DNA of 64,000 bases from Carcharhinus longimanus (Eukaryota), in contig JASCQW010000043.1 of the NCBI GenBank assembly GCA_030264375.1, forward strand, positions 60,412,789 to 60,476,788. Direction: 5' to 3'. The notes under the pieces are model-generated. The model ran no database searches and was not told the origin of the DNA. It worked only from the letters and a program-made list of their open reading frames with translations. The translations under genes were made by a program, and so were the position numbers. Positions within the stretch are counted from its first letter, which is position 1, and each line of letters opens with the position of its first letter. This document shows positions 36,300-63,309 of this stretch, in pieces.

Positions 36300-37030
36300 G
36301 GAATTTGTTATTTGGGATGCTTGCATTCAAAAAGACCTAGATGTCCTTGTAAATAAATAATAGAAACTTAATATACAGGTACAGCAAGCCATTAGGAAGG
36401 GAAATTATATGTTAGCTTTTGTCACAAAGGCAGAAGGGCATAACTACAACTACACAGAGCATCAGTGAGGCCACATCAGAGTACTGTGTACAATTTGGTA
36501 CACAGTACTCTAGATGTGGCCTCACTGATGCCATAAAATTTGGAAAGACATACTTGGCCTAGAGGGAGTGCACCAAGGGTTCTCTAGACATACCTGGGGT
36601 GAGGACATTGTCCTGAGAGATTGGGCCTATATTTCCCAGAATATAGAAGAATGTAAGGTGATCAAATAGAAACATAGAACATTTTTCAATGGCTTGACAG
36701 GGCCAGTGCTGAGAAAATGTTTTCCTTCTTGGGGAATTTGGAATATGTAGTCACAATACTAGAATTAGGAGCTGGCCATTTAGGACCAAAATGAGAAATT
36801 TCTTCTCATAGGTTTGTGAATCTTTGAATTCTCTACCCCAGAGAGCTATAGATGCTAAGTCATTGAATATATTCAAGCCGGAGGTCAGTAGATTTTTGGG
36901 CATGTTGGGAATTAAATGACTTGGATATAGTGCAGGATGGTGGAGAAAAGTTAGGAAGTCAGCCATGTTCTGTTGAATGGTGGAGCAGGGTCAAAGGGTA
37001 GAAACAGCTTATACCTGTATCTTTTTCTCT
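36300..37030 (+). mobile_element. CR1 LINE 3' fragment containing a snap-back hairpin at 36459-36531
   Basis: 'caggtacagcaagccattaggaagg', 'gaggccacatc.gagtactgtgtaca', 'gaattctctaccccagagagct', 'gaatggtggagcagg'. Confidence 0.8.
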
Positions 37031-39182: not shown

Positions 39183-39372
39183 AAAACAGAAAATCTCAGC
39201 AGATCTGACAGCATCTGTGAAGAGAGAATAGAGCCAATATTTTGAGTCTGGATGGCCCTCAATGCTTCGATTAAGGCTCTATTCTCTTTCCACAGATAAT
39301 TTTAGACCTGCTGAGATTTTCCAGCAGTTTCTGTTTTTGTTTCAGGTTCCAGCATCCTCAATATTTTGACTT
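39183..39372. mobile_element. Penelope-like fold-back insertion (family B) in LOX intron 3
   Basis: Left arm 'aaaatctcagcagatctgacagcatctgtgaagagagaatagagcc' is the reverse complement of right arm 'ggctctattctctttccacagat...gacctgctgagatttt'; 3' extension 'ttccagcatcctcaatattttg'. Confidence 0.7.
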
Positions 39373-54249: not shown

Positions 54250-54430
54250 AAAAGCAAAATACTGCGGATGTTAGAATCTGAAACAAAACTCGAAAATGCT
54301 GGAAAATCTCAACAGCTTTGACAGTGTCCGTGACGATCTGATTTAGAGCTGACTCGAAATGTTGGCTCTATTCTCTCCCCACAGATCCTGTTAGACCTGC
54401 TGAGATTTTCCAGCATTTTCGGTTTTTGTG
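54250..54430. mobile_element. Penelope-like fold-back insertion (family B)
   Basis: 'gaaaatgctggaaaatctcaacag' pairs with 'ctgctgagattttccagcattttc'; contains 'gactcgaaatgttggctc'. Confidence 0.65.
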
Positions 54431-55315: not shown

Positions 55316-57967
55316 AAAAAGCCACCCAGCTCAATTCCAAAGCATTAAGTTCACCTGTAAAGAAATTGGACCTCCTGATAAAGCAGCCAAGAGTGTCTGA
55401 CTTCACAAGCAGCTGAATATTCTTCTTATAGAAGGAATCCTGCAACAACCCTGAAATCTGACCCCAGCTACCCAAGTTTATTGGAATTACAATTCAAGAG
55501 TGGGAAAGAGCTTCTTTCTTCACTGGACCTGCAAAGACAGGTGGACTGTTGACAATTTTTTAGTTTATACATGTAGAAGTGTACCATCTTCTTTAAAGGT
55601 ATCTTTCTTGTGTGGTTGATATAGCATTTAGATTTTTTGAGATGAGTGTATGGATAAATTAACCTCTTTGTTTAAACCCATAAAAGTTTGTGCTTGTACT
55701 TTTAAAATTGGCCACATACTAACAGGGGTGTAGAAACACACTCTTTATTAAAATTAAACCACACTGATTATAGACGAAGAGAAAAGGGATAGGGATCTCA
55801 GTCTATCTGTTTTTCCCCTAAGTATTTGCTTTCTCCTGCCAACTGTACTTCTCCCTCTTCAGCCCTGGTCCAAACTTCAATCTAACACTGAATCTGAATC
55901 AGCAGAGCAGACAATCCTGACCTGATGATTGTAGCTGCTCAGTGTTGTAAGATGAAAGCTCCACATCATCTCATACTGCGGGCAGGAAACATGATGGGAA
56001 GTAGTGTTTATTGCCATTGGCTAGATGCTCTTTAAAACACATGTCGTGAAGTGAAATATTTCATGTTATGCTGGCGTAGGTTTACTGCTGACGGACTGTG
56101 TGGTACATTGATAGAGGATTAAAAGAAGTAACATAGGGGATATTTGGCTATCCTCATTGATCCATTGAGTGCCACCTCATAATCTCCGAGCTTAATTATT
56201 TCAAGTCGATTAAGAGTTTAGATTGGTATGCGGCCACCAGTTGCTAAGTCTCTTCCTTTGCCTGTGGGATTCCTATTTCTGCAATCATAAATAAACTAGT
56301 AATGTGCTGACTGTTTCACAAACTCTCCTCTTGCTGTGCAATTGGCCACAGTGTCTCCCAAAATAAACCATGCATAAGAGGAGCAGCATAAAATGTAACT
56401 TCAAATAAGGTGCCAACATGTTGAATCTAAAACACAGGACTGCACACATGCTAAACAGCAGAAACAGTATAAAGACAGACTTTCACTTTTCAACTAATAA
56501 TGCATCAGTCCTGTCACATCCAATTATGAATGGTTGTGGACAATTAAATAACTAACAGGAGGAGAATACTCCATTAATATTCCTATCCTTAATATTGACA
56601 TAAATCAGCACATGATTCCTATAGAAGGCTTGAAGTATTTGCAACAGCATTAAGCCAGAAGTATTGAGTGGATGATCTATCTTAACCTCCTCAAGGGTTT
56701 CCCAGCATCACTTAGTCAATCTTCAGGCAACTCAATTCATTCCATTTCCATATTAAGAAATAGCTGGACATGCTTGATACACTAAAAGCTATGGTCATCA
56801 ACAACATCCTGGCTGTGGTGCTGAAAATCTGTGCTCCAGGATGAACTGTGCTTGTAGCCAAGCTGTCCCAATACAGCTACAATACTGACATCTACCTGAC
56901 AAGAGAAAAATTGCTCAAGTATGTCCTGTCCACAAAAGGTAGGACACATCCAATCTGAGAAAATTACCACCCCACCAGTCTACTTCACAATCATCAACAA
57001 AATGATGAAGGTGACGTCAATCATGCTGTCAAGCAGCACTTACAAACCAGTGACCTGATCACTTACGCTCAGCTTGGTTCTTTCAAAACCACATTACAAC
57101 CTTTGCCCAAACATGGACAAAAGAGCTGAAATTGAGAGGTGAGACTGATTGCCCTTGACATCAAAATAGTATGTGACTGAGGGTGTCATTAAGGAGCTGT
57201 AGCAAAACTGAAGTCAGTGTGAATCAGGGAAAGACTCCAATGTCTGAAATTATACTGAGCCCAAAGGGAGAGGGTTGTTGGAAGCTGATCATCTCAACTC
57301 CCACTCTACTGCTGCAGGAGCTCCTTAGGGTAGTATCAGCACCTTCAGTTGCTTCATCTATAATCATTCTTCATCAGACCAGAAGTGGTAATGTTCTTTG
57401 ATGGATTGTAGTGTTCAGTTCCTATTGTAACCCTTCAGATAACAAAGTCTGTGCCCACATGTAGCAAGGCTTGGACAATATTCAGATATGGACTGCTGTG
57501 CCAAGTAACATTCATACCACTCAGGTGTCAGGGAATAGGCAGTAAGAGAGTTTAACCATCTACCTTTGCTATCTAACCACATTACCATTGCTGAATCCTC
57601 CCACCATCAACATCCCACAATTTACCATTGACCAGGAGTATAGCTGGACCTGCCATATAAATACTGGGCCTATAAGGGTAGGTCAGACATTGGATAGTCT
57701 GCAATGAGTGACTCAGCATCTGACTCTCCAAAGTTTTTCCATCAACTATAAGACACATCAGGAATATTTAGAATACTTTACATTAACTGGGCAGGGACAC
57801 CTTTAATAACACTCAAGATACTTCACACCATCCTGGCTAAAGCAACCTGCCTGACTGGCACCCATCCACCACCCTAAATATTCATTCCCAGCGCCTGTAA
57901 CTTCAGTGTGTACTATCTACAATACATGTTCTAGCAATTCACTAAGGTCTCTGACATCAACTCCCAA

Positions 57968-58256
57968 AGTAAAAAGTCTGACAACACCAGGTTTTAGTCC
58001 AAATTATTTATTTGATAATATACTCACTAGCTTTCGGGTTAGACCCTTCGTCAGGTGAATGGAGAGTTCTGGCCTCAGACANNNNNNNNNNNNNNNNNNN
58101 NNNNNNNNNNNNNNNNNNNNNNNNNNNNNNNNNNNNNNNNNNNNNNNNNNNNNNNNNNNNNNNNNNNNNNNNNNNNNNNNNGAATGGAGAGTTCTGGCCT
58201 CAGACAGAGCATATAAAGCACAGACAGTTTAGAGATTACTGATTAGAATGCGAATC
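57968..58256 (-). mobile_element. Penelope-like pLTR insertion (family C) with minimal hammerhead motif, spans an N gap
   Basis: Homologous to the 62113 element; flanked by 'ctcccaaa'/'atcaactcccaaa' duplications. Confidence 0.7.
58023..58059 (-). ncRNA. Minimal type I hammerhead ribozyme motif
   Basis: UUCAC-CUGACGA-A-GGGucuaaCCC-GAAA-GC-UA-GUGAG: stem I UUCAC/GUGAG, stem II GGG/CCC, palindromic AGCU in place of stem III. Confidence 0.55.
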
Positions 58257-58965: not shown

Positions 58966-61900
58966 AACAGGAGGCTAATATGGGAGCATGTAGGGTTGCC
59001 ACACAAAACCAAAACACTGGAAAGAGTTAAACTCAGTAGACATTAATACTGTCAAATTTCTTTGAAGTGTTAAACTTCTGCATGGCAAGGATGATTCCCT
59101 GAATTCAGAAGCTGCATTTACCTGAGAAGGTTGCATCTCTGAAGTCAAAAATAAAAACTATTGTCAGGTTCATCTCTGAGCATAATTTTGACAGCCCTAT
59201 TTCTAGATCATTGAGAGCTCCTTGACAATAGAAACAAGCAGTAAGCTGTTTGTGTTCATAGCAAGAACGTGCATATATCCCTTTACCTGATATTCTGCTT
59301 CTCATACACTCCGCTCTCCCAGCACATTTTACAATTGATGCAGAGATTATTGAATCGTTATTTATATGAGACCAGGTGGTCCTCTTTCTGAACCTACAAT
59401 GCTAACATGAAATTAGCCCAATAATCTTTCCTGCAGTTAGATGTTGTGCTTATTATAAATCTGATTTATAGATGTCAGGCACATGGAAGGTGCTAACTGC
59501 ATTGCTGCAAAGTTTAGAAAATACATTAGTAAACAATTATATAAACATATGAAGGTGTAAGACAGGGAAAGACCAGCTGTTCCACTGGACCTGTCCTATA
59601 TTGTCACATCACCTGCCTATCATTCCCCACCATCCACAAAGTCTCTTAAGGGAGGCAAAAACCTTAGGCCAATTTCAGAAAAAGAATCATTAGTGAAAAC
59701 AAAAGCTATTAATAAAAATTGTATAGTGGTGTCATGGCTGTAGTTAGCTCCCAAAATGTTTGTTTGCATAGCTGGCTCTCTCACAATGGAGTGATTTCTC
59801 ACTCTGAAGCCCAATTGGCTGCACAAGCCATGTGACCCTTACTCTGCTGTGTTGTCTTGAAAGGGACAATCACCACATCTAATACTCAGCTGCCTTCCAT
59901 TTGAGATTATGTTGTCCATACTCAGGAACTCATTCAGATCCCTTTTAAATACTTGCAGTGAATTGCATTCATTTCATGACAGAAACTAATTTCAAAAGTT
60001 GGCAACCATTTTCTCAAAGAAGTACTTATAACATTTAACTTAGTTCAAAGTTGACATTTGTGTTTCCTGGTCCTCTCTAATCTATCTCAAATAGCATATC
60101 TATATGGATTAAGCTGAGTTCTTCCATTATTGTAGAACAACAAGCAAATATCCCCAAAGTTTACAGTTTTCTAGTGTGGAAAGCTTTAGCTCTTTAAGTT
60201 TATTGTGATAACTGAGAACTTCTAAGCTAGGTATCAGTGCAGTCTAGAACCTTTCCACAAGTTGAGGTCTTTGAGCCCCCAGATATAAGTATATTTCAAG
60301 GACAGCACTTAGAGCCCATTTGTTTCCTCTACAGCAGTCTTTACCTATCTTAATCACAAATACTTTTCAATAGAAAAACAAGAGAAAGACAGATTTACGA
60401 ATAGTGACTACTTTATAATTTTTTAGTGCACAGCTGCCATCAATATCAATAATAGCCACTAAGTAGCGCTATTGTCTTTTAATGTAGCTTGAATGTAGCG
60501 TGGATTTGGAAATTTTAAGCGTTTAAACATCTCTGTTCATCTGTCTCTGTCCATCCATCTGTCTATCTTGTATCAATAGGAATTTTTTGAAGCCACAATG
60601 ATGCCATTCACTTGGATATCATCTTGTCCGCACAACATAAATTTACAGCCAGCAAAGAATAGTTTCTATTCTCAATGCAGCTATTGGGCTGGCCTTCTGC
60701 TGGCAAGTATTATTATTTTGGTATTAACTCTTGTGGTTTTGCAAGCATGCTAACGTGAAAAATCATGAGTACTGCAAAGTAGTAGGGAAGGAAGCACATC
60801 TAAACCTACAGTGGAGTACAGGACAAATATAAAAAGATTTTTCCTTGAACTTGCATTTGATTGCTATATAAATAAATACCTGGTTCCTGCTCCAGTGAGG
60901 CTGTGCCTCCCACAAAAACCACAATGAAGAATGTTGGTAACCACAGTTTTCTTGCCTTTTTCTTGGGTTTCCTTTGCCAATTTACTCCCACTGCTAAAGG
61001 AACTGATTTTTGCTAAATATGATTACATCAAAACAGGCAGCCTCTTCTCCACCTTGCTCACATAGCCATTTTTCATTTGGACACTAGAAATGACTATTGA
61101 TATCTGTTCATTCTGGAGCATGTCCTCATGAGAACTAAGCCCGTTTTTGTTCTTGTCAGTATCCATACATGTGCACTACACAGCAAAAGTCACAAATATT
61201 ATAAAAACGTAAGCTACACTTCATTACCCAACATCACCCATTGCCAGGGGTTAACATACAGTGCAGTTTTAAGGAGTGACTTTAGAAGCCTGATGTTGAA
61301 TCCTGAAATTTGACTTTATAAAGCCTCGCTGACAGAAGGTGAAAATTGTGAATTTGGGAGCACAAACATACAGAATAGAGTTGTTGCCCATTCACCACAG
61401 GCATAAACAGCTTAAAATAACTCCACTTGATTCAGACTAGTTCCGTGCTATGGGCGAGGTGGAAACTCACTTGGAGGAGTTCCCAAAGAGAGTTGCAGAA
61501 GAGATAAATATGGATCTTGGGGATGACTATGCATTCATTGCTTTTAGAGAGGAAAAGTGGTCAGAGTTGAGGCAATTGCTGGCAAAAGCAAAGCAGTCAA
61601 CTTTTGAAGAGGGGTTTGACGTTCGAGGTTTTGAAAGAATAGTGGATAGTGCCAATTAGCTTACCATATGTATGCTCGTAGAAAATATTTTGCATTATTA
61701 CTTCAGGAGTCTACCAAGCTAAATAACACAGATTGACAAATTTCACCCTGCTATGCACTAGCCTCAGCACTAGTTGTTATTAATATGTTTAGTATCAATA
61801 AGTATAAGATAAACAAAGCCCACAGTTTAAAGAAGATGCATACTTTCTGCCCCTGATATTACTCAGCATAGGATCATAAGAAATAGGAGAAGGAATTGGC

Positions 61901-62112
61901 CCAATGTAAACCACCATTTGATAAGATCATGGCTAATTTGATTATAGTTTAATTCCATTTTCCTGCTTGCCCCCTCATAACACCTAATTCCCTGGTCAAT
62001 CAGTCTTGAATATATTTAATGATTCAGCCTCCACTCCTTTGTGTGAAATAGTATTCCAAAGACTAATGACCCTCAGAGAGAAGAAAGTCCTCATCTCTGT
62101 CTTAAATGGGAG

Positions 62113-62346
62113 AAACACAGTAAAAAGTCTGACAACACCAGGTTTAAGTCCAACCGATTTATTTGATAGTAAACTCACAAGCTTCCGGGGTTAGTCCCTT
62201 CATCAGGTGAAAGGTCATTCACCTGACGAAGGGACTAACCCCGAAAGCTTGTGAGTTTACTATCAAATAAATCGGTTGGACTTAAACCTGGTGTTGTCAG
62301 ACTTTTTACTGTGTTTACCCCAGTCCAACGCCAGCATATCCACATC
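62113..62346. mobile_element. Penelope-like fold-back insertion (family C): 99-bp inverted arms, 30-nt extension, 11-bp target-site duplication
   Basis: Arms 62113-62211 and 62218-62316 differ at 2 positions; TSD 'taaatgggaga' at 62103-62113 and 62348-62358. Confidence 0.8.
62218..62255 (+). ncRNA. Minimal type I hammerhead ribozyme motif
   Basis: UUCAC-CUGACGA-A-GGGacuaacCCC-GAAA-GC-UU-GUGAG; predicted cleavage after 62250. Confidence 0.55.
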
Positions 62347-63309
62347 CTAAATGGGAGATCCCTTGTTTTTAAACTGTGTCCCTTCATTCTAGATTCCCCG
62401 ACAAGGGGATGCATCTACCCTGTCAAGCCCCTCAGAATTGTATATGTTTCAATAAGATCACTTTCATTATTATACTCTAATGAATATCAACCCAACCTGC
62501 TCAACTTTTCCCCATAAAGCAACCCCTCCATCCAAGGAAGCAGTCTAATGAAACTTCTTTGAACTGCTTCCAATGTAACTATAGTCCTTCTTAAGTAAGG
62601 CAACCAAAAATTTACACAGTAATGCCCCGTGCTTTAGCAAGACTTTCTTGCCTCAGACCTCCTTGGAGCTTGATTTCTCAATTAAAAACATTGGCCAGAA
62701 TGTTATAGCCATTCACGTCAGTGGGATTTTCCCATCCCACTGCAGTGAACGGAGATTTAGCTGGGCACCAAATTCTCCAATTTCGCTGCAGCGGAATCAT
62801 GGCATGAATAGCCAGTAAGATCACGTGCATTAGCCTCATTAGCAACAAGTTGGAGTTGTTTTTTGCCCCCTAAATAGCTCCGAGGCTGCCACATGCAATA
62901 CAATTTTGGTCCATACTGGACAGTCACACTTGATATCCCATACCAAACCACTTCTGACATTAAAATGCCCTAAATTGTGTTTCTGCCCTAAAAGTGAACA
63001 TAGAATTTCTTCTGTCCCTGGCAAGTGAAACAGTTCTGGAAGATTTGCAGTTGATTTCTACATATTCATGAGGACATGCATTTGTATTTTAATTTCCACA
63101 GACTCCTCAATCATTCTGCAGCCCAACATACATCAGAGAATGAAATATGCTGTAATCACACAAGTTATAATTTGAACTGTAATTTCTGTTACTCTCAGCA
63201 ACAACTTAAAGTCAAGTAATTAACACATTGCAAACGACAGCACCACAAACCTGCACACACTTCTAGATACATATTACAAAATTATGAAAATGTTTTTCAT
63301 ATCTTGATT

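Follow-up and report, generated by a model that had tools for sequence, protein, structure and literature searches.

Structure of the insertion

The window in the present study, i.e., the whole 64,000-nt stretch of contig JASCQW010000043.1 from the shark Carcharhinus longimanus, carries a short palindromic insertion that splits a decayed repeat (Table 1). The palindrome described in a previous inspection of the letters only (hereafter, the sequence-only reading) was recovered by recomputation of the window sequence: two 99-bp arms (62113-62211 and 62218-62316) with two mismatches (62185 and 62202) around a 6-nt spacer. The hairpin is highly stable (z = -24.5), with 0 of 200 shuffled sequences being equally stable, and the insertion itself has no ORF. 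The same reading placed the start of each arm exactly at a hammerhead stem I. The plus arm is indeed 5'-truncated just before stem I, but not exactly there, as its family match begins at 62216, which leaves just four of the six spacer bases as non-element sequence. The intact CUGACGA/GAAA core reported for the plus motif and the GGAA of the minus motif were both found as described.

Table 1. Features of the palindromic insertion and of its surroundings in the window
Feature	Position	Strand	Remark
Left TSD	62103..62113	+	11 bp, exact
Inverted tail-less pLTR arm	62113..62211	-	Outer end coincides with the inner 3' end of the family
Minimal hammerhead motif, minus copy	62174..62211	-	GGAA in place of the core GAAA; likely inactive
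Head-to-head junction	62212..62215	no strand	4 non-element bases; junction found once among 50 listed of 173
Sense pLTR arm	62216..62316	+	5'-truncated just before hammerhead stem I; 94% identity to the L127 pLTR
Minimal type I hammerhead motif	62218..62255	+	Cut predicted after 62250
PLE tail, 31 nt	62317..62347	+	In longer copies, the start codon of the ORF begins at its end
Right TSD	62348..62358	+	
Host repeat, decayed LINE-like coding fragment	61850..62640 (approximate limits)	-	Split by the insertion
Second family copy	57965..58256	-	Direct, tail-less, longer 5' side, split by a 100-N gap

The insertion is flanked by an exact 11-bp direct repeat, base 62113 being counted in both the arm and the TSD, and a 14-bp repeat with one mismatch fits too. 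In four of four sequencing runs from other organisms, host-repeat contigs without the insertion cross a single copy of the 11-mer into left-flank-like sequence, and the loose-end consensus of uninterrupted host-repeat copies lies at 62348. Since these uninterrupted copies hold one copy of the motif, the 11-bp duplication is a real TSD that was made at insertion. The TSD of the sequence-only reading therefore stands, whereas its 30-nt extension is a tail of 31 nt.

The host repeat may be related to CR1 in that its translated flanks resemble the CR1 C-terminus. A protein search gave zero matches in support of this assignment, and no informative copy was present among the fetched loci.

The insertion was also claimed to be young. 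The divergence of its arms is low (2/99), as this claim would have it, but lies within the range of the family: the difference from the 5.3% pooled over family arm pairs was not significant (p = 0.18). Moreover, the right junction is just bridged by a contig that covers 62317-62430 and whose flank has 12 differences in 319 nt; it comes from a run labelled as another organism. A further contig, an ambiguous match, covers the tail and flank with 7 differences in 59. A contig from yet another organism aligns from 62344 onward and then diverges from the tail; it resembles an empty site and may be a paralogue. The whole insert was spanned by none of the contigs compared, and its interior is without independent confirmation. 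The insertion is probably common to close species and not a fresh polymorphism.

The second family copy in the window (57965-58256) has a duplicated flank, and the sequences on either side of its 100-N gap overlap, because of which the gap looks like an assembly artefact. At 62700-62800, the start of another high-depth repeat with short inverted repeats was observed.

A coding Penelope-like family

The genome-wide copy count proposed in the sequence-only reading was performed with one 25-mer from the arm, which had 22,683 exact matches (control, 0); this number counts arms, not insertions. An arm search returned 1,968 first-look candidates, 40 of which were scored. Downstream of the tail, longer copies run into an ATG and a reading frame of the Penelope type, the best database relative of which is a Mustelus asterias protein (92% identity). 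Upstream, other copies pass through approximately 210 nt of non-coding 3' UTR into the end of a reading frame. At locus L141, a gap-free run leads from a cysteine linker and a GIY-YIG-type frame through the 3' UTR of approximately 210 nt to a pLTR that is approximately 91% identical to the arm. At L127, the pLTR matching the window sense arm (Table 1) continues upstream into the end of an endonuclease frame, and shorter endonuclease ends are present in L127, L129, L130, and L144. The pLTR is found after the EN (L141, L127) and before the ATG (L066, L049, L092). In L154, a tail-bearing arm in inverted orientation and a broken RT frame are separated by a gap from a pLTR with 92% identity to the arm in the window.

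Regarding the encoded proteins, the L141 peptide is 73% identical to the shark protein P0014, which matched PF01541 below the curated cut-off (E 2.5e-4). The homologue P0027 matched both RVT_1 (E 4e-6) and GIY-YIG (E 8e-4) in a single chain, again below the curated cut-offs. When the peptides of the family itself were compared with the Pfam cut-offs, L141 had no match, L154 matched RVT_1 at E 0.014, and four N-terminal proteins had no match. An ORF with an RT plus, at its C-terminus, a GIY-YIG was consequently found in pieces, namely, as the RT-like frame of L154, the GIY-YIG-type frame of L141, and both together in P0027. The exact subfamily yielded no copy that is intact, gap-free, and full-length; of the 30 endonuclease matches ranked best, only one had a directly adjoining pLTR at least 90% identical to the arm, and most represented a sister subfamily with approximately 80% identity in the pLTR. 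A CX2-5CxxC linker, a CCHH with two cysteines inside the core, and a DKG motif were recognized by eye in P0014/P0027 and P0002, and the last cysteine of the L141 linker is changed. These motifs fit the Neptune or Nematis clades as defined in the accessible text of PMC8557442.

On these sequence grounds, the arm belongs to a high-copy, ORF-coding EN+ Penelope-like family. The Penelope-like identity originally proposed from the inverted pLTR, tail, TSD, and minimal hammerheads is thereby confirmed, the family being continuous with GIY-YIG and RT-like frames. Regarding the autonomous GIY-YIG/RT partner that was to be sought, coding frames were present within the same family. Tandem tail matches on two contigs were also considered, neither of which contained a full element.

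Six loci (L066, L069, L072, L077, L085, and L093) have approximately 90-170 nt of the ORF start joined to a 5'-truncated 3' UTR and pLTR at a point that differs in each, and may be partial tandems or deletions. Both L141 and L127 have a TATA-like run upstream of the pLTR hammerhead, which could be the start site of the element. Its distance of 27-33 nt from the base that precedes stem I is a promoter spacing.

Hammerhead motifs

The plus motif consists of a 5-bp stem I, an extra A after the core, a 3-bp stem II, and a palindromic AGCU that replaces stem III. Among 59 motif copies, which are related and not independent, the core positions except N7 were kept in 53-59, GAAA was present in 47, and H17 was not G in 58. 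Stem II covaried in these copies, with G-C in 46 and A-U in 10 at pair 2 and G-C in 31 and A-U in 19 at pair 3. The motif thus combines the features of a minimal type I hammerhead, i.e., the core, the extra base, G10.1-C11.1, the palindromic AGCU, an H17 other than G, and covariation in stem II. An Rfam scan of the window gave no match to a hammerhead family, only weak matches to miRNA hairpins; hairpins with such matches, all below the threshold, lie at 36457-36536, 39210-39300, and 54296-54416.

The two motifs of the insert are located on opposite strands, which excludes pairing as a cis dimer. In whichever direction the insert is read, transcription reaches the antisense arm first, and forcing a hammerhead in the full insert is predicted by folding to cost 57 kcal/mol relative to the hairpin. 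Both hammerheads are accordingly predicted to be buried in the hairpin, and cleavage at this insert appears unlikely from the folding model. Because opposite strands bar a cis dimer and read-through RNA is predicted to bury the motif, we regard the hammerheads as passengers here. No RNA dataset was listed as containing the sequence.

Ends, pairs, and junctions of family copies

Positions in the family are hereafter given relative to q1, which is window position 62218. Loci were sampled in the order of the genome; removal of 2 duplicates from 90 left 88 loci, whose 107 gap-free 3' ends fell into two groups, with 60 at an inner site (q90-104), 47 at the tail end (q127-138), and none between. These two fixed ends agree with Poseidon of Anolis, in which the tail is set by two internal RT start sites, as described in the accessible text of PMC11167929. 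In L066, the equivalent of window 62274-62332 is predicted to form a stem-loop that encloses the inner 3' end, and the AC-rich tail end lies just behind it, as in the Anolis start-site hairpin.

Across all fetched loci, 60 gap-free head-to-head pairs were obtained: 36 were tail/tail-less, the commonest form and that of the window copy, 4 were tail/tail, 7 were tail-less/tail-less, and 13 ended elsewhere. Mixed pairs exceeded the expectation from independent choice (36/47, p = 2e-4), and when conditioned on one tail, double tails were fewer than expected (4/40 vs 28%, p = 0.008). This excess is suggestive, the loci having been drawn by several differing queries and most family copies having assembly gaps. 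Of 39 complete pairs, 22 showed a TSD and 17 showed none; among 113 controls, such duplications numbered 6. When the two arms of each insertion were compared, 14 of the 132 family-variable sites disagreed (a single locus accounted for 4), whereas random copies disagreed at 44%; the value for other non-CpG sites was 4.2%. We considered the use of two different RNA templates per insertion, and the low disagreement points mostly to one lineage, although it is not decisive.

The sequence-only reading raised the question of whether fold-back points cluster at the ribozyme. Genome-wide, 571 fold-back patterns were counted just upstream of q46 (control, 79), 79 at q34 (2), 173 at q1 (1), and 15 at q-14 (0), with anchors that differ in conservation and long palindromes that assemble poorly. 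In 100 arms anchored inside the hammerhead, the 5' ends spread from q11 to q-226; across the family, the start of the arm varies between 226 nt upstream of it and 90 nt within it. A broad excess was noted in these 100 arms from q8 to q-15 (47 ends in 1346 nt vs 18 in 1566 nt further upstream, p = 3e-5), which did not recur in the second sample, where 98 arms had 1 end in 395 nt of the same zone. A sharp peak at stem I had been hinted at by approximately 11 of the 28 top BLAST matches as counted by eye, but was not confirmed in the 100-arm sample (13 ends in 263 nt vs 34 in 1083 nt beside it, p = 0.19), and at the predicted ribozyme cut, where the second sample had no peak, 2 ends were counted in 170 nt, with no excess. 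Clustering at the ribozyme was not established, with the ends being scattered.

The junctions themselves recur at short palindromes. WAGCTW junctions numbered 17 among the 50 fold-backs listed, according to a hand count that includes one probable assembly duplicate, and a 7-nt hairpin seam was present in 8 among the 50 listed of 173. Seven stem-II variants are represented among the eight copies with this seam, and the two arms in any one insertion are mostly alike, which indicates that the seam arose repeatedly and was not copied as a unit. The 50 fold-backs listed near the cut center on the AGCT palindrome. Micro-palindromes explain the repeating junctions. In L285 (G000:C1:45842391), three re-copyings of the junction sequence have left a 34-nt tandem, which points to template slippage that took place repeatedly at the seam.

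Origin of the palindrome

We consider the palindrome to be, with high probability, two pLTR ends, each 5'-truncated, from an ORF-coding Penelope-like retrotransposon of high copy number, which were placed head to head, likely in one target-primed event, and have likely been inert since. The observed parts of this explanation are the family membership, the continuity with GIY-YIG and RT-like frames, the two fixed 3' ends, the TSDs, the scattered micro-palindrome junctions, and arms that are usually of the same sub-lineage. The protein of the element would cut both target strands 11-14 bp apart, and reverse transcription would start inside the RNA, from the tail end on one side and from the inner site on the other. 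Both cDNA copies would halt after approximately 100-130 nt, and their ends may then be joined at a short self-complementary or untemplated seam, which would be the four non-element bases in the present copy. Alternatively, one cDNA may snap back, as proposed in the accessible part of PMC3846280, with the tail being trimmed afterwards. We lean towards priming at two sites; snap-back of one cDNA followed by trimming is credible, but held with some doubt.

A different possibility concerns the source RNA, which may be a short non-coding pLTR transcript, either from a solo or internally deleted copy or as the 5' head of the full mRNA, that is mobilized by the family protein; 5' ends would then pile up just before stem I, and the palindrome would form at insertion. 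The scarcity of long coding copies of the subfamily is consistent with this possibility, as are the TATA-like run described above (if it acts as a promoter), the fall in fold-backs from 173 to 15 over the 15 nt between q1 and q-14, and the broad 5'-end excess seen in one of the two samples, which begins 8 nt inside stem I and extends to 15 nt upstream of it. Non-autonomous PLE derivatives have also been reported in the accessible texts of bioRxiv 10.64898/2026.07.22.740005 and PMC8557442 (MRC1). On the other hand, the lack of a sharp peak at stem I and the near-empty zone of the second sample argue against it, gaps in short-read assemblies favor copies that end near the anchor, and the ORF-start-to-pLTR copies have different joins, with no single deleted master seen among them. 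We regard this possibility as improbable.

The sequence-only reading preferred a minimal non-coding unit mobilized in trans, in which the 204-bp palindrome with its two hammerheads is itself transcribed, cut, and copied. The exact recurrence of some junctions, the conservation of the motif core, and compensatory changes in stem II across copies are in favor of such a unit. However, recurring junctions sit on different sub-lineages, that of the window is single among those listed, the variable starts make its arm boundaries one of many truncation points, and the ribozymes are on opposite strands and predicted to be buried. Furthermore, copies sharing both ends and the internal junction, which an amplified unit predicts, were not seen among the 50 listed of 173 stem-I fold-backs, and the family is continuous with an RT/GIY-YIG ORF. 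A search for an ADAR-type scar found none, in that the A-to-G strand bias that marks a hairpin RNA intermediate was lacking (12 vs 10 between strands). The proposal is largely refuted and, in our view, very improbable. An origin of the palindrome as an artefact of short-read assembly or as a MITE-like DNA transposon has a chance close to negligible: many assembly gaps and some duplicated joins do occur at such repeats, but the arms differ at two sites, the TSD is confirmed by uninterrupted host copies, the tail is carried by just one of them, and the arm belongs to an RT/EN element.

Relation to known elements

The novel system for which the sequence-only reading saw its best candidate is not supported, the layout having already been published (PMC3846280, PMC8557442). 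In the accessible parts of the literature, EN+ PLE insertions have an inverted 5'-truncated pLTR, a 30-40-bp tail, and a TSD (PMC3846280, PMC8557442, PMC8969392), which, similar to the minimal hammerhead, are known PLE features. The present family shows the same combination, i.e., an optional tail of 30-40 bp, an inverted 5'-truncated copy, and a TSD of variable length (11 bp here). The resemblance extends to head-to-head pLTRs, a tail on just one of the arms, which measures 31 bp in Pen2a_Av and 31 nt in the present copy, a TSD of approximately 10 bp, and palindromic seams, which were interpreted in that work as self-priming. The published examples compared differ in that they keep an ORF or captured DNA; the window copies are too short for this and have no ORF between them. 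We regard the window insertion as an ordinary and likely dead stub that derives from a shark Penelope-like family; a new mobile unit is unlikely. No account of this family by name was found in a literature search that lacked most subscription journals, Dfam, and Repbase.

The motif is similar to the minimal type I hammerheads of metazoan PLE pLTRs in the accessible text of PMC4209133 in its core, the extra base between 9 and 10.1, G10.1-C11.1, the palindromic 15.2-16.2, and the lack of a real stem III, and differs in that its stem II has only 3 bp and a mismatch. Motif pairs on opposite strands 100-700 bp apart, as well as single motifs from truncated PLEs, were described in that study, in which minimal hammerheads cut weakly and only as dimers; its accessible text makes no mention of sharks. 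In Poseidon from Anolis carolinensis, two internal RT start sites define the tail, both target strands are cut and extended, and hammerhead cleavage in the pLTR was dispensable for insertion in vitro, according to the accessible text of PMC11167929. The Poseidon ORF starts inside the hammerhead with a coding tail, whereas the ATG lies at the end of the tail here, and the shark protein has the linker cysteine motif that PMC8557442, in its accessible part, assigns to Neptune/Nematis and not to Poseidon. Animal non-LTR retrozymes, which are short, non-coding, hammerhead-bearing, PLE-related, and present in one cartilaginous fish, are described in the accessible text of bioRxiv 10.64898/2026.07.22.740005 (see also PMC7229834) as head-to-tail tandems with same-strand ribozymes; the window insertion is a single head-to-head pair with no tandem.

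A single insertion is of little weight; the family represents a large natural sample of PLE integration products. How inverted pLTR structures form was termed undefined in the accessible text of PMC8557442, a question to which the recurrence of junctions at micro-palindromes and the surplus of tail/tail-less pairs are relevant. It is conceivable, albeit unlikely as a whole, that the shark stubs, in their tens of thousands, record an integration in which two internal start sites, one for each target strand, are coordinated on short RNAs from a promoter just before the hammerhead, with the cDNAs being joined at micro-palindromes that include the ribozyme AGCU. If this coordinated process is true, the subfamily spreads mostly as non-coding pLTR heads.

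Pieces of the retrotransposon ORF occur in five shark gene models (P0004, P0006, P0020, P0026, and P0028), the names of which include chitinase-like, septin, and PP1 regulatory subunit; these models are probably annotation chimeras.
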